IMG/VR virus record: IMGVR_UViG_3300037067_003476
Coordinates: 79,156 to 143,155 of that record
Length of the DNA: 64,000 bases
Strand: one strand, 5' to 3'
Source of the DNA: a virus
Lineage: Duplodnaviria > Caudoviricetes
Shown here: positions 10,648 to 61,097 of the stretch, in pieces
Layout of the letters: each line of letters begins with the position of its first letter
Position numbering within the stretch: the stretch's first letter is position 1
Notes under the pieces: model-generated
What the model was told of the DNA's origin: nothing
The model's input: only the letters and a program-made list of their open reading frames with translations
The model's database searches: none
Made by a program: the position numbers and the translations under genes

Positions 10648-11514
10648 TTACCCCTTATTCCGACCCCTCTTCTTGGGTTTCGTTATGCTATCGCCGATTA
10701 GCTCTCCGGTTTCGTCGTCTATAAATGGTTTGACATCAATAACCAATTCACCATTTACATCAACCTTGTTACCATCAACATCAACAAAATTGCCATCCTT
10801 ATCGATATATCTACCATTCTCGTCAACGCGACGACCAGATCGATCTACAAAACTGCCACTTCTATCCGTTAGTCTTCCGCTTTGATCCATGAATCCATAC
10901 TTCTTCATCCATTGAATTTCTGGAAGTGTGTCGGCGAACCCGTCATCGTATCCATACATAATTTTCGCCAAAGTTGTTGCTACAAGTATAGCAACAGGTT
11001 CATCGCTCCTACTCAAATAATCGTCAACATCCATAAAATATGGATTACCATTATCTGCCCTAATAGCACATTTGGTAATAAGCCAATTGAATCGATAGTT
11101 CTCGGCAACAGATTCCATCGTCGCACTATCAAACTGCGATCTCTTGGCATGAAGTTGCATCAATTCGTTTCGAAGATCTCCAATATGTAATGCGAAACTG
11201 CGAGCCTCTGAAAGTTTAATGCCACCCTGTTTTAACGCACACTCGCATGCTCGTATCTCGATTTGTAGCTCATTGAATCGAACCGCGTCATCTCTTGTCC
11301 ACACACCCATGTTTTCAAGATGTTTGTCCAGTTCACTTCTTAACAGAAGCCTTTCATTTTTGTTTACGCCACTCCTCATAAGCTGGGCCAGTCGAAGACT
11401 GTACTGAAGTTGTGCTTCTTGCATCAACTTATGCCCAGGTTTGACAACAACCAAGTCAACATCTTTCTCCAAGAGATCCTTGCCTGTAACATCAATTTGC
11501 TTATCCATCCTCAT
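10648..11514 (-). CDS. Putative tail assembly chaperone
   Basis: Position just before the tape measure; C-terminal D-x-x-G-x-x-VD repeats. Confidence 0.5.
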   Translation of the reverse strand: MRMDKQIDVTGKDLLEKDVDLVVVKPGHKLMQEAQLQYSLRLAQLMRSGVNKNERLLLRSELDKHLENMGVWTRDDAVRFNELQIEIRACECALKQGGIKLSEARSFALHIGDLRNELMQLHAKRSQFDSATMESVAENYRFNWLITKCAIRADNGNPYFMDVDDYLSRSDEPVAILVATTLAKIMYGYDDGFADTLPEIQWMKKYGFMDQSGRLTDRSGSFVDRSGRRVDENGRYIDKDGNFVDVDGNKVDVNGELVIDVKPFIDDETGELIGDSITKPKKRGRNKG

Positions 11515-31868: not shown

Positions 31869-34394
31869 CTATTGATTATACACCTCTCCGCGTTTTACGG
31901 CAGCGACATTATTGCTTCTGGCCCACTCTGCATTTCTGAATCCTGCAATTCCTGGTCCGCGATACATACCCTCTGACGGGTCCACGTTAACAGCCCTGAT
32001 GTTACCTGGGACATCATCATAATCTATTATTGGAGGAGGAGTTATATCGTTGTCGTAGACATATCTGTGAGCAATCAACAAACTGGTATACCTATCCTTT
32101 CGCATCTTATGGGTTTTTTTCTTACCCTCAGATATGCTCATTTCTGTAACAGAAGGTGCTTCGAATTTTTCCTTTCCAGTCGGAGTCGATGTCATTTTGA
32201 TGGCACATAATTCGTTTTTAAGTTCTTCGATATTATGAACGATGTCTTCGTAAGTATCGGTTGTTATTCCGGCAAGATTTTCAACAGCCATTGCCGCCTG
32301 CATTTTAACGGTATTTATTCCTGGGAACAATAGTTTTCTGGTTTCAAAGCTCTTGTGCATAAACAAATTAGACTGACTATTCCATTCGGTCGATTGCGCG
32401 ATAAGATGTAATATATGTGGCCCATCCCTCTCTTCGTCCATTGCCTTTGGTGCATCAAAATCAATTACCTCATAAATTGGCATATCCCCTTTAGATGGAT
32501 CTAATAGCTTTTTATTCCTTAGCATCTCGGCTATAGCATATCCACCACCCTGACTATCCATCTCTATGCGAATAGGCGAAAACGCCTTAACGACATCTCG
32601 TATACGAGAGCAACAGTAATCGTAATAGTCTTTGTTTGTAACCAACCCTCGCTTCTTACGTTTCTCAAACTCTGGTTTGTTAACTGCCCAGCAATATACT
32701 ATTCTCCAGTGATTAGGCCAAACCTCTATTATGGTTATTGCCAAATTATCCCGTTCTGCTGCTGGGTCAATTCCGATCACGTACTTGACACCCTTCTGTG
32801 CTCGGGTTATTGGCGTAAACACAATATCTCCGTCTGGCGTCGTGATGGGTTTGCCTGGATATGTTGTACACGCCTCGATCAAACTTCTTTTATATATACC
32901 ATCCGAGTCTGCAACAAAGCAATTGTGATGAACAATGCCCTGGGCTAGATACGAATGGTCTTCTTCTACCTCTAAATTATAGACCCAGCCAGAATAATCG
33001 TATACCTCTATTTTGATTACATAAACAATATTTTGAACTGGTGATGAATCACCATCGTTACATACGAAAGACGATAGCTTATCACCAACCATCAAATGTT
33101 TCGCCGAAACAAATTTGCGACCATTCCATATCGGATGATAGGCTGTGACCTCGATAGGATTGTCAACATCAGTACTGATTTTGTATATAGACCCAGTGTA
33201 ATATCTATACTTTCTTCTAATTACCTTTCGTTGTAGTCCTGTGTGAGATATTACTAAATCGCCACAATTAACATCAACTATCCTCTTCGTTCCATTACTA
33301 GTGTAGACTTGTGTATTTTCGACTGCGCATGCACCGTATTCCATTAGATATATATTGGTGGGTAACGTTGCTTTGGCGTGTGCTAATTGTCTTTGATCAA
33401 GCAATCCCTCTTGGACACAATTGTGGGGAAGACGAATAACAGCATAGTCCTTCCAGTTAAAGTGCTCTGGTATGTTATCTTCGCCGCCAAAAATGTCGGC
33501 GATAATGTCTCTGTTACCACCACTTTGTATGATACTTTTCCACATCTCATATCGCTTGGCGAAATGATTGAACGCATAGTACGCCGTACCACTATATATA
33601 ATTTGGTTGGTACCTCGCGTGTCGCCAACAAGCCTATCTCGAACATGCTTGGGAACACCAGCCTTTGCTAGCTTTTTATCAAGAGCTATCTTCTGTGCTT
33701 CTTCTACTGGACTTTTTGATGTTGCGGCGAATCCGCGAACTACGATATCAAATACATCTGCTGGTATCGAAGCAAACTCGTCCGCTATAATACAATGGGC
33801 TCGAAGACCACGAATCTTTGTTCCGTCTCCCATCGGTGCAGCAATAATAACGGACTCACCGATCCTAAAGTAACAAAGATCTACACTCTGTTTTGGTCCA
33901 GCTTTACGGCCACCACCAACAATACTGCGTAATACTGGAGCAGAACTCCAGATATCTTCTATGTACTGAAAAACCAACTTTGCCTGTCTTAGCCCAGCAC
34001 CAACTATTACTATTTTTGATCCTGGCTCAAGTATCGCCTTTAATATTGCATAGACGGCCAATATGAAAGACTTTCCGGAACCACGAGATGCAATGAGCAT
34101 TGGAAACGAATGGTCCCACAATGTTTTTAGAATAGCAAGCTGCATAGGAAACAACGATGTGTTCAGAATAGACTTAACTGTCCATCCGATATATTCTGGA
34201 TCAAGTATCGCACGAATAACAAACTCGTCTGCCTTTTGCTTATCATGAACAATATCTTGAAATGGATGGTTGGTAATAACAGGAACATCGTCTCTGTTTG
34301 GGAATAAATATGCGTACCGGCCTTCGTCACCGTAGAGCAGCGCATTTATTCTATCTATTTGTTTTTTATTCTTTACTTTTGCTGAGGAACCCAT
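31869..34394 (-). CDS. terL: Terminase large subunit containing an intein
   Basis: Walker A SRGSGKS, Walker B IIADEF, nuclease IGIDPA and KDRY motifs. Confidence 0.92.
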   Translation of the reverse strand: MGSSAKVKNKKQIDRINALLYGDEGRYAYLFPNRDDVPVITNHPFQDIVHDKQKADEFVIRAILDPEYIGWTVKSILNTSLFPMQLAILKTLWDHSFPMLIASRGSGKSFILAVYAILKAILEPGSKIVIVGAGLRQAKLVFQYIEDIWSSAPVLRSIVGGGRKAGPKQSVDLCYFRIGESVIIAAPMGDGTKIRGLRAHCIIADEFASIPADVFDIVVRGFAATSKSPVEEAQKIALDKKLAKAGVPKHVRDRLVGDTRGTNQIIYSGTAYYAFNHFAKRYEMWKSIIQSGGNRDIIADIFGGEDNIPEHFNWKDYAVIRLPHNCVQEGLLDQRQLAHAKATLPTNIYLMEYGACAVENTQVYTSNGTKRIVDVNCGDLVISHTGLQRKVIRRKYRYYTGSIYKISTDVDNPIEVTAYHPIWNGRKFVSAKHLMVGDKLSSFVCNDGDSSPVQNIVYVIKIEVYDYSGWVYNLEVEEDHSYLAQGIVHHNCFVADSDGIYKRSLIEACTTYPGKPITTPDGDIVFTPITRAQKGVKYVIGIDPAAERDNLAITIIEVWPNHWRIVYCWAVNKPEFEKRKKRGLVTNKDYYDYCCSRIRDVVKAFSPIRIEMDSQGGGYAIAEMLRNKKLLDPSKGDMPIYEVIDFDAPKAMDEERDGPHILHLIAQSTEWNSQSNLFMHKSFETRKLLFPGINTVKMQAAMAVENLAGITTDTYEDIVHNIEELKNELCAIKMTSTPTGKEKFEAPSVTEMSISEGKKKTHKMRKDRYTSLLIAHRYVYDNDITPPPIIDYDDVPGNIRAVNVDPSEGMYRGPGIAGFRNAEWARSNNVAAVKRGEVYNQ
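31876..31883 (-). promoter_or_regulatory. Putative late promoter motif GTGTATAA
   Basis: At the TerL 3' end, about 45 bp upstream of the portal ATG. Confidence 0.55.
32922..33329 (-). mobile_element. Mini-intein (136 aa, Hint domain only) in TerL
   Basis: Starts C(AVENT), block B VTAYHP, block F VYNLEVEEDHSY, ends HN followed by Cys +1; no endonuclease domain. Confidence 0.92.
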
Positions 34395-34885
34395 AATGAT
34401 CTTTCTTGTTTTACAACCATATCAAAAATAATTTTTGAGACCTGCCTACCGCACTGTCCAACAAACATAATCGGAACAGAATACTCTGAACCAAGTTTCA
34501 TTAACCAACCGATAACCGCCTTACCTGGAACATGCGTTTTAATTTGTGATGGCGATAATTCAAAAGCCTCTCGGGTTAAATCGGTTTCTATTAAAACATA
34601 ACGATACTTAATTTCCGCCATCCTAATAAATTCATTCAATATTCTATCTTGATCATTCAGGTAATTATTCCATAACTCTGAAAAACCTGCTTTCCGCTCG
34701 ATACATAGTAAGTGTTCATAATTTTGAATAGAGTAGTCACCCGTTTTCAGGGTGTCTGTGGTCGTTCCCAGACATAACGGCGGGCGTTTCGTTGGGTGAC
34801 TGCGCGAAAATTCCCAATAACTTCCACACTCTTTCTCTCGTGTATCGCGAATCACAGTATATGATGGCATTATTAGTCTTGGCAT
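34373..34885 (-). CDS. ERCC4/XPF-family nuclease
   Basis: DTRE ... LKTGDYS ... IERK signature. Confidence 0.8.
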   Translation of the reverse strand: MPRLIMPSYTVIRDTREKECGSYWEFSRSHPTKRPPLCLGTTTDTLKTGDYSIQNYEHLLCIERKAGFSELWNNYLNDQDRILNEFIRMAEIKYRYVLIETDLTREAFELSPSQIKTHVPGKAVIGWLMKLGSEYSVPIMFVGQCGRQVSKIIFDMVVKQERSLWVPQQK

Positions 34886-34891
34886 GACTTG

Positions 34892-35898
34892 TTACCCATT
34901 AATTTCTATTCCAACTTGACGACAATCATGTATCACCATTTCTCGTATCAATTCGTGAAACGTAGTCTTTGGTTCCCACCCAATGATTCTCTTGGCTTTA
35001 GAAGCGTCTCCACATAATAGTTCTACATCTGCGGGACGAGAACATACTGCGTCATACCCGACATGATCTTCCCAGTTTAGGCCAACTACCCCAAATGCTT
35101 CTTCGAGCAATTGTTTAATAGACCATGTTTTCCCTGAAGCTATTACAAAGTCGTCTGGCTTTTCTTGTTGAAGGATAAGCCACATTGCTTCTACATAATC
35201 ACGAGCATGGCCCCAGTCTCTGCGCGCTGTTAGACTCCCTAGTTTAAGTTTGTCTATTTGTTTATTATGCTGTCTAGCTTGAAGCAGTCTAGCAATATAC
35301 ATAGTAATTTTGCGGGTAACAAAATCTTCGCCACGCCTAGGACTAGAATGATTAAAAAGGATGCCTGTGCAACCAAAGACCCCATATGCTTCTCTATATA
35401 ATCTACAGGAGTAATATCCTGCCGCCTTAGCTACTGCGTAAGGCGACCTTGGACGAATTTCGGTTCCTTCATTTTGTGGGGATTCTCGTACATCTCCGAA
35501 AAGTTCCGATGTTCCAGCGAAATACATCTTGGTAGTATTACTAGTTTGTCTAATAGCTTCAAGAATATTTAGAGTTCCCATAGCATCGGTTTGAAATGTA
35601 GCGTATGGCTCAACAAACGATACACCAACATTGCTTTGTGCCGCTAGGTGATATATCTCATCCGGCTTTATTCCAGATATTATTCTAAACATACATGACG
35701 CATCGGTTATATCCCCCTCAACTAAATGCAGTTTGGGATTAGCTAATAAATGGTTTATTCTTTCTTTTGTATTTGTAGACGATCTTCGTATTAAACCATA
35801 AACATTGTATCCCTTTTCTAATAGTAGCTCAGACAAAAACGATCCGTCCTGACCCGTAACTAAACGCCCGTGATTAGGGCTGTTTTAGTCCTGTTCAC
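34892..35898 (-). CDS. gmd: GDP-mannose 4,6-dehydratase; 5' end interrupted by a 5-nt insertion carrying an in-frame TAG
   Basis: PDEIYHLAAQS, YAVAK, GILFNH, RDWGHARDYV motifs; AGGAGG-GTG start gives MNRTKTALITGV*, then the frame resumes at (V)TGQDGSFLSELL after 5 nt. Confidence 0.85.
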
Positions 35899-36808
35899 GG
35901 GCATCCTCCTTTCGACACTGATTCCACTTGTATTCATATTGTTCTCCTATTGAAACACTTTGCCTAATCCACATAAGAAACGCCTTAGCAGACTTACTAC
36001 GAAGTCTTATCCTATGTGTATTTTCGCTATATATACAAGAAAATCCAAAACTCTCTAATTTAGAAATTAAGAACTCACAATCTTTTTTAGAAAAACGTTC
36101 CGTACATAATATTAAACCATATTTTAATGGCTTCCCATCCCCTATCGCCCACCAATAATATGATAATGGCGTCAATCTAATATCATATGGTATACACCTA
36201 GTTTTATCTTTATTATACCATCTAGTATGATGATCTCTAAAAAATTTATATGAATGAGATTTAATAAAATATTCACTATTACCACTATGCTTATCTACTC
36301 CTGTCCAAATTGGAGAAAAGTCAATCTTACTTAATGCTTTTTGTACTTGAAGAATTGTCTCTTTAAAACATGATCCATAGCAAAATCTACCGGATAAAGA
36401 CGACTGAGAAATATCTATGTGACCATCACCAAGCATCATTCCGTCAAGAATCTCTAAATCAGTATCGGATAGCTGAACATCTTTTAATCTATCAATATGG
36501 TGTTGCGAATTCCCGTCTATTATCATGTGTTTACTATGTTCTGTGTGTGTTCGTCCATAAAATGGATTATTTACACCAGAATTTGCAAAAGACATTTTTT
36601 GTTTCCACTCGTCGGTATGTTTTCTTCCTTTATTGCGCTTACCAATATTTCGCTTGGCACAAGTTCCAGAACAAAATTTACGCAGTCGATCTCTTTTGTT
36701 GTTGGGATTTACAGAAAATACACGATTGCATTCTTGACAAATCCTTTCTTCTAATATAGAACAATTATTTATCATTCCTTTCTCTCCAATAACGATTCCA
36801 CTTTCCAT
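35885..36808 (-). mobile_element. Free-standing LAGLIDADG homing endonuclease with N-terminal Zn-finger and NUMOD3-like motifs
   Basis: CQEC..FCSGTC, GRKHTDEWKQKMS/YGRTHTE, ILDGMMLGDGHI and WWAIGDG motifs; visibly more AT-rich than flanks; true start may be ATG 36775. Confidence 0.85.
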
Positions 36809-37848
36809 AAATGTTTGGTCGCAGCTTGTAATCCAATCCTGTTAATCTCGTCTACTATACTTTTCTGACCCAGCACGTTAAAGATATCTACCAATCTATT
36901 AAAGTAACTATGCTGCGTAGCTGTGTGTGTAACAAGAGACTTGATTATCCCCAATCGAACCTCTGGTCTAGAACCAATGGCCTCAACAAACTGAATAAAA
37001 GCTGTCACGTCGCTGACTACCGGTATCATATTTCCAAAATACTTGGCACCCAACGATGTATTGATAATCGGTAGTCCGCCACATATAGCCGATGCGAAAG
37101 TCCGCCCATTTAACACCGCACCCTCTTTTGCCTGATCGGTTGTGTGTAGGTTTACACAAACATTGGATCGACTATAAATGTTAGCTGGATTACCAGTAAA
37201 TGGCACTACGCCATTTATGCCTATTGTATTCCATGTATTATCACCATGGATGACAGTATTCAATCTTCCACTAATCCTCATCAACAACGGAAGAATCCAC
37301 TCTCTTAGTATATCCATGCGATGAGACATGTTGGCGATTATAGACACCCCGTGCGTTGGAGATAAGTCTTGTGGGGTCGATATCAATGAATCTCCGGCCA
37401 TTGGTAATTGCATCAGTGGAATATCCTGGTCAAACCATCTATGAAAATATTTTCCCCATACATGTGGTTCCGCAGACGTATGCACAATCTTGCGATTGAT
37501 CATGCCAGCTACAGAAACGTCGTCGTATGTCGCGCATCCAAACCTGTTGTCAAGACAAAATCCGTCGTTATTAAATGGAAGCGCCTCAATAATGACGCAT
37601 ATGCTACGCTTATTGATTAGATCTATTGGTAGATTTCGCAAACCACATACACATGACACAAAAATAATCGACACATCTAGTTGTTCAATAATACTAACTA
37701 TATCAGCCTTGCAAACTGGTTGATATGCAAAAACTTTCCACCCAACAGCACGAAGGGCATTGGCGTATCCACGACTAGCAACATTAGTTGTGACGTTATC
37801 GTTTAGTATGAATAGTGCAGAGTTATTCATCGTCCCGCCCTTCGACAT
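36772..37848 (-). CDS. Glycosyltransferase (GT-B, CgeB-like)
   Basis: IYSRSNVCVNLH...LNGRTFASAICGG...HSYFNRL C-terminal pattern; adjacent to gmd. Confidence 0.65.
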   Translation of the reverse strand: MSKGGTMNNSALFILNDNVTTNVASRGYANALRAVGWKVFAYQPVCKADIVSIIEQLDVSIIFVSCVCGLRNLPIDLINKRSICVIIEALPFNNDGFCLDNRFGCATYDDVSVAGMINRKIVHTSAEPHVWGKYFHRWFDQDIPLMQLPMAGDSLISTPQDLSPTHGVSIIANMSHRMDILREWILPLLMRISGRLNTVIHGDNTWNTIGINGVVPFTGNPANIYSRSNVCVNLHTTDQAKEGAVLNGRTFASAICGGLPIINTSLGAKYFGNMIPVVSDVTAFIQFVEAIGSRPEVRLGIIKSLVTHTATQHSYFNRLVDIFNVLGQKSIVDEINRIGLQAATKHLWKVESLLERKE

Positions 37849-38740
37849 CTGTCGTAATCACGTCTTCGTCGGCATCAACGGTTTCGCTATCGAGAATGAC
37901 ACAATCATTTTGTCCATCTGGAAACTCGACTGTCGTTCTGAACTGTTGCAACATATCGTCAGTAGCCAATCTCGTTAGTTCGGCATATTTGCCATGTTGT
38001 TCGCGACTCTTATCATTGGTTCGAATATCGGCAACTAAATCGAAAAATGTTTTGTTCCCAGTCTTTAGTTCATCAACCCTGTCCCTTCTTGTTGCCGCAA
38101 GATTCTGGTATATCTTTTGTCTTTCTGCAACCAGCTTATCATATCGTGTATTGGCTTCGTCCAGTGCTCGATTATGGTCTCCAAGCAACTTATACTTCTC
38201 CATTCGAATGGCCTTATCTTCTTTGCTATCGCTTTCTTTTGGAGAACTTAATTCTAGGAAACCCTTTATTTCGGAGATTGCAGTCTGTAACGCTTTCATT
38301 TTTTCAAGTTGTCGATTAATCAAAAGCCTGTGTTTCAAAAAGTCGTCAATCTGAAAATACTCACTAACAACTATATCTTCAAACTGGGTACAGATCTGTC
38401 CGTACTCCTCCATATAAGCACGTACTTCGTCTGTGTTAAACTGCTTAATTAGTGCGACATAAAGATGGCTCTTGCGAAATTGTTCTCTAAACCAATCGGC
38501 CTTATCATTATATGGTAAATTGGCAGGTGGCGTAGAAAATATGTGTCCACTAGCACTATCACAAACAGGTGCCATCCTGTTGCCAGTTTTCAGTTTTTGG
38601 CGCAATCGCCCTATGGTTACATGATGGAACTTATGGCCGATGACAGCTTCGATACGCTTGGCTATTTCAACATTGGTTATATTATTTGAGATTCCATCAA
38701 GAAAAATTTCCTTGGCCTTTGGGTTATCTAGCAATTTCAT
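37823..38740 (-). CDS. Putative terminase small subunit (N-terminal HTH plus coiled coil)
   Basis: N-terminal HTH-like segment, helical body, upstream of TerL. Confidence 0.4.
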   Translation of the reverse strand: MKLLDNPKAKEIFLDGISNNITNVEIAKRIEAVIGHKFHHVTIGRLRQKLKTGNRMAPVCDSASGHIFSTPPANLPYNDKADWFREQFRKSHLYVALIKQFNTDEVRAYMEEYGQICTQFEDIVVSEYFQIDDFLKHRLLINRQLEKMKALQTAISEIKGFLELSSPKESDSKEDKAIRMEKYKLLGDHNRALDEANTRYDKLVAERQKIYQNLAATRRDRVDELKTGNKTFFDLVADIRTNDKSREQHGKYAELTRLATDDMLQQFRTTVEFPDGQNDCVILDSETVDADEDVITTDVEGRDDE

Positions 38741-43818: not shown

Positions 43819-44199
43819 GTGATGTGTCCAGTCAGTGTGATGATAAGGTGTGTCTGCGTCGGGAAAAAAGCCGCCTCTTATGCCAATGTGAGGCGAGCCA
43901 AATTATGCGCCATAGCCGTTACCCTTAGCGGTAGGGTAGTGGCTGTGGCCCATAACCGCAGAACTGACGGGGACAAAAATCGTTGGACAGAACACGCAGA
44001 AGAATGCTTGATTAGAAAGATCAAAAGAACTAAAGCTATTGAGCGTTTTGGTAAACTCATTTTGTTAGTGATGAGAATCAATACTCGTGGACTAGTCATG
44101 GCCAAACCATGTGCAAGATGTCAGTCCATGATTGCTAAACTCGGCAACAATATTACTGTCTACTATACAGATAATGAAGGGAAAATAACTAGGCTATGA
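43819..44199 (+). CDS. Cytidine/deoxycytidylate deaminase-fold protein
   Basis: HAE...KPCARC zinc motif. Confidence 0.8.
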   Translation: MMCPVSVMIRCVCVGKKAASYANVRRAKLCAIAVTLSGRVVAVAHNRRTDGDKNRWTEHAEECLIRKIKRTKAIERFGKLILLVMRINTRGLVMAKPCARCQSMIAKLGNNITVYYTDNEGKITRL

Positions 44200-60566: not shown

Positions 60567-61097
60567 ATGTGCGAGTTTATTAGCGGCTGGATAAATCGAA
60601 AAGGCGAAATTTTGATTCGTGACTTTCGCAGTCACTCAGAAACAGAGAGTGCTCTTGGACGCAGCCTCGAAAAGGAGGGGTATCGTCCATGGGAGTGGAC
60701 ACGAGATGATGGTGGCGAATCGCTGACTGTACGCATCGTTCCAAACGAGGAATGGAACGAGGCTGCGTACAAGAGTCTTATTCTCTCGCGATACCAGAGT
60801 CGAGGCGACCTGATTTATAGCGTTGTCAACACCAAAGAGTTTCGCGACTACATCAAAGGCAGATCACTCAATTTAATGGGTTGTCAAAGTCTGGTTTCGT
60901 TACCAGACAACTTGAACGTCTGTGGGGATTTACATCTTAATGACTGCACAGCACTCAAATCGCTGCCAGATAAATTGAAAGTCGGCGAAAATTTAGATAT
61001 TAGTGGATGCACAGCACTTAAATCGCTGCCAAACAACTTGAAAGTTGGCGAAAGTTTATGCATTAATGGCTGCACGGCACTCAAATCCCACAAATAA
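60567..61097 (+). CDS. Leucine-rich-repeat protein
   Basis: 22-aa repeats LPDNLKVGENLDISGCTALKS (66-nt tandem repeats, about 60880-61089). Confidence 0.85.
   Translation: MCEFISGWINRKGEILIRDFRSHSETESALGRSLEKEGYRPWEWTRDDGGESLTVRIVPNEEWNEAAYKSLILSRYQSRGDLIYSVVNTKEFRDYIKGRSLNLMGCQSLVSLPDNLNVCGDLHLNDCTALKSLPDKLKVGENLDISGCTALKSLPNNLKVGESLCINGCTALKSHK

Follow-up and report, generated by a model that had tools for sequence, protein, structure and literature searches.

The window analysed here, the whole stretch of 64 kb (64,000 nucleotides, nt), is the right-hand part of a 143,155-bp phage record in IMG/VR (IMGVR_UViG_3300037067_003476), and the complete genome is referred to below as G000. The window contains a gmd gene, which encodes a GDP-mannose 4,6-dehydratase (Gmd), and the reading frame of this gene is broken by 5 nt shortly after its start, next to a gene for a homing endonuclease. 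The break, and a similar one in a glycosyltransferase gene elsewhere in the genome, are the subject of this report. Positions are those of the window unless a genome or contig is named.

The gmd locus and its endonuclease cassette

The features of the locus are as follows; the two identical codons on either side of the break are called the take-off and landing codons.

36772-37848, minus strand: glycosyltransferase-like gene, 358 amino acids (aa), PF13524 (E 3.7e-8), upstream of the endonuclease gene
35885-36775, minus strand: free-standing homing endonuclease gene, 296 aa, NUMOD3 and LAGLIDADG_2 (PF03161, 2.1e-17; PF07460, 2.2e-12)
35920-35929, minus strand: second copy of a 10-nt direct repeat, AAGTGGAATC, with the first copy at 36794-36803, so placed at both junctions
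35905-35910, minus strand: Shine-Dalgarno (SD) sequence AGGAGG, read directly, 6 nt ahead of the gmd GTG start
35862-35906, minus strand: 5' hairpin, with the 5' arm GGAUGCCCGUGA (35906-35895) over the GTG start and the 3' arm UCACGGGCGUUU (35873-35862)
35863-35898, minus strand: gmd segment 1, GTG (35898-35896) plus 11 codons, encoding MNRTKTALITGV and ending in the take-off codon GTT (35865-35863)
35860-35862, minus strand: TAG, the zero-frame stop that immediately follows the take-off codon; the landing codon begins with the G of this TAG
35858-35860, minus strand: landing codon GTT, a repeat of the take-off codon at a distance of 5 nt downstream; the next codon is ACG (35857-35855)
34892-35857, minus strand: gmd segment 2, TGQDGSFLSELLLEKGY..., 321 codons to the natural stop, intact and 5 nt out of register with segment 1

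On the minus strand the start region of gmd reads GTG...ACG GGC GTT TAG, and every coordinate that a preliminary description of this DNA gave was correct on re-reading. Segment 1 agrees with the N-terminus of the family, KTALITGVTGQDGS, as found in viral relatives. Segment 2 matches PF16363 (E 1.4e-111) over profile positions 14-332, that is, the match begins only at position 14, and the match to the Epimerase profile begins exactly at the landing GTT. The GxxGxxG loop of Gmd is complete only when the two segments are joined, in which case the predicted junction peptide is TALITGVTGQDGSFLSELLLEK. The earlier suggestion that removal of 5 nt restores the Rossmann motif agrees with the family, and the rest of the gene is intact as had been stated, with no further stop or frameshift in the 321 codons that run to 34892. 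Gene callers report gmd as a 314-aa open reading frame (ORF) that starts at TTG 35836.

The endonuclease ORF, whose activity is predicted, is assigned to its family because it is free-standing and combines a NUMOD3 DNA-binding motif with two LAGLIDADG motifs. Its ATG overlaps the TGA of the glycosyltransferase-like gene as ATGA. At its other end, the TAA falls within the opening codons of gmd, and 20 nt separate it from the take-off codon downstream, the distance that had been estimated previously. The last four codons and the stop of the endonuclease gene overlap the first gmd codons out of frame, and the gmd SD sequence is overlapped as well. The endonuclease ORF and gmd segment 2 share one frame with a single TAA (35885-35887) between them, and readthrough of this TAA would yield ...NSPNHGRLVTGQDG, which lacks the first glycine spacing; we judge the shared frame to be a coincidence (1 in 3).

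The nearest relative, G001 (IMGVR_UViG_3300021603_000005), is a complete genome of 143,428 bp that is collinear with G000 at about 80-84% nucleotide identity. At its gmd locus (L037/L038/L040) there is no endonuclease gene, and the glycosyltransferase gene overlaps the start of gmd directly. The Gmd of G001 has 334 aa, is uninterrupted and is 75% identical to that of G000, and in the nucleotide alignment the two genes differ by a gap of exactly 5 nt, at GTT-TA-GTT. The endonuclease gene and the 5 nt are therefore both absent from G001 (L037), and only one lineage carries both. Between the two gmd genes, nonsynonymous differences (pN) are at 0.18 and synonymous differences (pS) are saturated. 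A close relative was not found in the phage GenBank collection. As to other copies of the interrupted gene, neither the exact-flank pattern nor a degenerate +5 pattern had a match in viral_contigs, and a degenerate pattern with 8-nt spacing gave at least 120 chance matches in metagenome_contigs, with no gmd among the matches listed, and was uninformative.

The comparison with L037 also indicates how the endonuclease gene is bounded. About 35 nt of the 3' end of the glycosyltransferase gene are duplicated in degenerate form, and the second copy now forms the 3' end of the endonuclease gene. The 10-nt repeat alone is near chance level; it gains its meaning because both copies align to the single junction in L037. 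At the 3' edge of this endonuclease cassette lie the gap and the hairpin as well as the 12 codons with which gmd begins; they probably arrived together with the cassette. Among 5.8 billion proteins, only two others are related to the endonuclease. The closer homologue (P0122, 37% identical) is encoded on two small contigs, including L180, directly upstream of a gmd-like gene that it overlaps, and this synteny would fit an endonuclease family that homes to the 5' region of gmd. A likely role for the 5 nt, although still a candidate one, would be to alter the endonuclease target within conserved motif-coding DNA while leaving Gmd expressible.

One observation on L180 concerns the quality of that 2.7-kb contig. 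The last third of its gmd-like ORF (about 2400-2758) is rich in Ala and Arg and has long antisense ORFs, and this 3' third may be a chimeric assembly.

A hairpin at the take-off codon and a second cassette

The hairpin that had been noticed to end at the take-off codon is real as a predicted fold. It has 11-12 bp, a free energy (dG) of -21.9 to -23 kcal/mol and a z score of -3.9 to -4.6, and none of 200 shuffled sequences was as stable. Its 3' arm ends in the take-off codon plus the first base of the stop, and the stop codon of the endonuclease gene is in its loop.

A similar arrangement is present in a second gene of the same phage:

G000:C1 62179-64398 (L041 3180-5399): glycosyltransferase gene with a mini-intein and a 9-nt gap, 15.4-17 kb before the start of the window

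This glycosyltransferase belongs to a 565-aa family and is cut three codons after the intein, whose boundaries are ...YVQYSI/C...HN/CEG (slashes mark the splice sites); the cassette is at G000:C1 63645-63705. After the intein, G000 reads GGT TAA CTA GGC TGG GGG ATG. The corresponding gap in G001 is GGT TGA CTA GGC, and three more distant phages have GGC TGA ATT GGT, GGC TGA AT GGA and GGC TGA CC GGT. Consequently, the gap is either 9 or 8 nt long, either TAA or TGA serves as the stop, and in two of the five alleles the sequence after the gap is in a different frame. What is constant is the order Gly-stop-Gly followed by a conserved W/F-G-M-P, which occurs in all five. A stop codon directly 3' of the take-off codon is thus common to both genes (TAG in gmd, and TAA or TGA in five of five glycosyltransferase alleles). 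Take-off and landing codons go from GGY to GGN in the five alleles. A hop from Gly to Gly is the one event that would regain the E-x7-E motif in every allele.

The downstream ORF, counted from the W/F codon, has 232-233 codons and is open in every one of the five alleles. Between the interrupted G000 and G001 alleles, omega is 0.059 at a dS of 0.98, and between an interrupted allele and an uninterrupted sister that lacks the intein, pN is 0.084 and pS 0.81. The downstream ORF is under strong purifying selection. The association of intein and gap was counted among 120 family members: a stop follows CEG in six of six with this intein type, in none of about 27 with other inteins at the same site and in none of about 80 without an intein there. 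In a tree of the N-exteins, the six cut alleles are scattered, and well-supported branches force at least three changes. Since intein and gap are linked and have at least three origins on the tree, both probably move together as a cassette.

For the hairpin comparison, the 50 nt ending at the take-off codon were folded, with 200 shuffles per sequence. The interrupted genes gave the following values (dG in kcal/mol; shuffles as stable):

gmd, this window: dG -21.9, z -4.6, 0/200
glycosyltransferase, G000: dG -24.6, z -7.3, 0/200
glycosyltransferase, G001: dG -24.0, z -6.1, 0/200
glycosyltransferase, L043: dG -25.6, z -5.6, 0/200
glycosyltransferase, L044: dG -25.6, z -7.3, 0/200
glycosyltransferase, L045: dG -20.8, z -5.4, 0/200

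The uninterrupted controls gave these:

gmd, G001 (L037): dG -7.0 kcal/mol
glycosyltransferase without the intein (L179): dG -8.7 kcal/mol
gmd-like gene behind the related endonuclease (L180): dG -1.1 kcal/mol

In all six take-off sequences, the 3' strand of the stem reaches up to or into the take-off codon. The stem in the glycosyltransferase genes shows one compensatory change, from C-G to U-A, that accompanies a synonymous GAG to GAA change, and several G-U/A-U alternations. When the 143-kb genome was scanned on both strands in 71,554 windows of 50 nt, 22 of these (0.03%) reached -21.9 kcal/mol. Both take-off hairpins are among the roughly six most stable loci of the genome, and none of the other top hairpins of the genome is followed by an in-frame stop.

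The scan and the comparison with G001 yielded some additional observations. The most stable 50-nt hairpin of the genome (window 43906-43955, G000 123061-123110) has a 17-bp stem and a dG of -29.5 kcal/mol and sits in a 133-codon open frame with no in-frame stop after it. Two near-identical hairpins with the same flanks lie 128 kb apart, at window 60723-60772 (G000 139878-139927) and at G000 11438-11487, with values of -22.7 and -22.9 kcal/mol; they may belong to repeated leucine-rich repeat (LRR) loci. The glycosyltransferase gene of G001 (L042 1501-4188) has a second intein, at DWKPD/C, that bears an endonuclease and is absent in G000. The large terminase gene in the window (31869-34394, minus strand, 841 aa) contains a mini-intein, and at the same place the terminase of the relative (1102 aa) has a larger intein with LAGLIDADG_3. 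Finally, a second sugar-nucleotide cluster is located outside the window (G000:C1 35966-40462) and encodes an SDR epimerase/dehydratase of 330 aa, an RmlD-like protein of 259 aa, a 2-epimerase-like protein of 364 aa and transferases.

A proposed stop-hop and the alternatives

We consider it probable, from the layout of the DNA, that the 5 nt in gmd serve as the coding gap in a minimal form of programmed translational bypassing: a +5 stop-hop that would be driven by the hairpin and carried by the homing-endonuclease cassette. This is the best-supported reading, and its basis is the exact geometry that restores the motif, the conserved twin cassette, and a hairpin in the top 0.03% at both sites that is absent in uninterrupted homologues. 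Ribosomes would initiate at GTG 35898, synthesize MNRTKTALITGV and then stall, with peptidyl-tRNA-Val paired to GUU and the A site occupied by UAG. The upstream mRNA would then refold into the hairpin, the 3' strand of which runs to the end of the take-off codon, and this would pull the message forward out of the exit channel. The tRNA would re-pair with the identical GUU 5 nt downstream, and decoding would restart at ACG, so that the Rossmann loop of GDP-mannose 4,6-dehydratase would be made in its canonical form, ALITGVTGQDGS.

As for the class as a whole, we lean slightly towards the view that this phage has two minimal bypass cassettes of an undescribed type. In each, a strong 5' hairpin would terminate in the take-off codon, to be followed by a stop, by 2-6 nt and by a synonymous codon for landing. 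Homing endonucleases or inteins would carry them into the most conserved motifs, and they would be hopped efficiently enough to keep the genes under selection.

Several results weigh against a stop-hop in gmd. The gap is present in one lineage only, and 34 viral Gmd loci as well as the closest relative are all uninterrupted. Therefore, conservation of the site cannot be shown, and dN/dS cannot be assigned to the time after the insertion. The gmd-like gene of L180 is also uninterrupted, and it lacks the hairpin, although it lies behind a related endonuclease. The gap is thus dispensable beside such an enzyme and not obligatory for coexistence with it. With five sequences, the covariation in the stem of the glycosyltransferase genes does not reach significance. 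With GUU in the P site, the ribosome encloses the 3' arm of the hairpin, and the role of the hairpin as a driver is therefore assigned by analogy only. In addition, the hairpin hides the GTG start, and its use could be translational coupling instead. Last, if the junction had formed by 3-nt microhomology and two filler bases had been added, a stop would be expected by chance in about 1 of 16 cases. By our own count, only one in 1024 of the 5-nt inserts at a codon boundary gives codon, stop and identical codon (4 in 1024 if a synonymous landing codon is allowed). Taken together, these odds make the geometry alone suggestive and not decisive. A matched codon alone is uninformative, because a screen for a codon, a stop and a matched codon at gene ends gave 52 matches for 198 ends in G000, where several ends had more than one, and 38 for 194 in G001.

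The preliminary description had proposed ribosomal bypassing, a link with the endonuclease, and a comparison of relatives with and without this enzyme. Bypassing is supported by the geometry, the twin cassette and the hairpin, but the evidence is indirect, and the gmd gap is known from one lineage. The link is supported by the synteny of P0122. Among the relatives, G001 has neither the enzyme nor the gap, and L180 has a related enzyme with an uninterrupted gene. No further lesion has appeared in the gmd described here.

Several other explanations could account for the break. One is that gmd is a recent pseudogene in which the 5 nt are either the junction of the cassette or a scar of break repair (GTT microhomology plus two filler bases), so that no full-length Gmd is made and the loss is tolerated through a host or another phage sugar pathway. 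A gap in a single lineage, absent from the relative and placed at the edge of an insertion, would be expected from such an event; the phage has many other sugar genes, and an ORF that is still intact is what a recent event would leave behind. However, the absence of any further lesion in gmd argues the other way, and a pseudogene explains neither a hairpin of this rank that ends at the take-off codon and is missing from both uninterrupted homologues, nor the same architecture, conserved and followed by a selected ORF, in a second gene. We regard the pseudogene as unlikely. An error of assembly or sequencing, with the true gmd uninterrupted, is hardly credible. The Logan assembly of SRR18595300 (a 118,410-bp contig) and two JGI contigs give the same 314-aa call and the same spacing of endonuclease, 48 nt and gmd. 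The JGI and Logan contigs may come from overlapping samples, but three contigs and two assembly pipelines agree, and the insert is not a homopolymer error. When all long ORFs of G000 and G001 were compared, protein against genome, no other real gene was broken or frameshifted, and the sole splits were extra or larger inteins. Because of this agreement and the lack of other broken genes, the gmd break is probably neither an artefact nor random decay.

The remaining two explanations involve translation without a hop. If the downstream part were expressed alone, by reinitiation after the TAG or after the endonuclease TAA, or from TTG 35836, the product would be a truncated or split Gmd. The gene callers do choose TTG 35836, and in the glycosyltransferase gene an ATG is located two codons after the landing codon. 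Nevertheless, there is no ATG, GTG or TTG between the gmd landing codon and TTG 35836, a start at this TTG loses TGQDGSF of the GxxGxxG loop together with the first strand, and no well-spaced SD sequence is present. Furthermore, the landing Gly and the W/F-G codons that precede the glycosyltransferase ATG vary only synonymously or between W and F, with synonymous sites saturated. Separate expression thus appears very doubtful. It is similarly improbable that the hairpin is merely a device for coupling or occluding the gmd start, opened by ribosomes that finish the endonuclease ORF, with the position of the gap a coincidence. The 5' arm over the GTG start and the endonuclease stop in the loop are what such a device would have. 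However, the L180 junction of endonuclease and gmd has the same overlap and no hairpin, so the hairpin is not simply a coupling device of these junctions, and the glycosyltransferase hairpins lie deep in the ORF with no start codon inside and still end at the take-off codon.

Some other candidates were examined and rejected. An Rfam scan of 34000-38500 revealed nothing relevant, either a group I intron or another known RNA. Reassignment of a stop codon does not apply, as the downstream frame differs and three different stops are used over the two sites. Slippage by -1, +1 or +2 at gmd fails because cognate re-pairing of tRNA-Val occurs only at +5, and a -1 slip at the glycosyltransferase fits only some alleles. 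The hexamer TAACTA, which is common to both gaps (on the plus strand), is not conserved in relatives and was treated as a coincidence. The tRNAs encoded by the phage (Met, Met, Leu-UAA and Glu) include no special decoder.

Known bypass systems and implications

The obvious comparison for a +5 stop-hop in gmd is gene 60 of phage T4, in which the bypass is reportedly carried by the MobA homing-endonuclease element (Huang 1988; Bonocora 2011). In that element, the endonuclease ORF and an N-terminal extension overlap in different frames, and the bypass cassette is at the 3' edge (Manning & Atkins, 10.1101/2022.08.31.505936). The gmd locus is alike in that the endonuclease ORF and the N-terminal coding piece ahead of the gap share DNA in different frames, and the twin glycosyltransferase cassette also appears to be mobile. 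Stem-loops on the exit side have been proposed to drive forward bypassing in gene 60 (10.1101/2024.12.09.627546). The differences are substantial. The gmd gap would leave 2 nt untranslated (a +5 hop) as opposed to 50 nt, so that there is no room for an A-site stem-loop; a stem-loop within the coding gap is lacking both there and in the twin cassette, where the gap has 5-6 nt. Likewise, no nascent-peptide signal 13-30 residues upstream is found in gmd, which makes only 12 residues before the gap, and a peptide signal of the gene 60 type is unlikely with so short a chain. Moreover, the endonuclease is of the NUMOD3-LAGLIDADG type and not an HNH enzyme as in MobA, the interrupted gene is gmd and has stayed a single gene, and homology to the T4 element was not apparent at the sequence level. 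Because two features of gene 60 are missing, the gmd cassette would resemble gene 60 in how it works but does not belong to the same family of elements.

Closer in size are the hops obtained with synthetic reporters in Escherichia coli, which include stop-hops as well as +5/+6 and 9-nt hops (Weiss et al. 1987, reviewed in PMC5009743). In those stop-hops, as in the model for gmd, peptidyl-tRNA leaves the codon before the stop and re-pairs with a matched codon a few nt further on, with 8-9 nt yielding one amino acid. The synthetic hops are unprogrammed and low-level and have no stimulator (PMC5009743), whereas the gmd site is in a natural gene behind a strong hairpin. According to the same review, no natural stop-hop was known in 2016 (PMC5009743).

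Programmed bypassing has been established for T4 gene 60 and for one yeast mitochondrial lineage. The latter concerns the byps of Magnusiomyces capitatus mitochondria (Lang 2014; Nosek 2015, cited in PMC5009743), which, as is proposed for the phage cassettes, are short and mobile, interrupt conserved coding regions and are tolerated through ribosomal bypassing. They also allow an imperfect landing match, which may be compared with GGC to GGA in one glycosyltransferase allele. Unlike the gmd and glycosyltransferase cassettes, byps are 27-55 nt long and mitochondrial, need an unused A-site codon and have no link to an endonuclease or intein. A candidate short bypass has also been described in the terminase genes of Streptomyces phages (Smith 2013, discussed in PMC5009743 and PMC10732093). 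That case, too, is a short coding gap in a phage gene deduced from sequence only, but it involves a rare UUA codon, a regulatory role has been proposed for it, and no take-off hairpin or homing element has been described.

If the proposed reading is true, short-range bypassing would be natural and recurrent in phages, and genes with such gaps are those that are now annotated as truncated or split. A system of about 60 nt, composed of a hairpin, a stop and a matched codon, would then be available to test refolding of the exiting mRNA as a forward driver. Such a hop would also account for the presence of homing elements in catalytic motifs. In conclusion, the two cassettes, if they function in this way, would be the first natural stop-hops and would represent a general way for selfish elements to tolerate insertion in conserved motifs.

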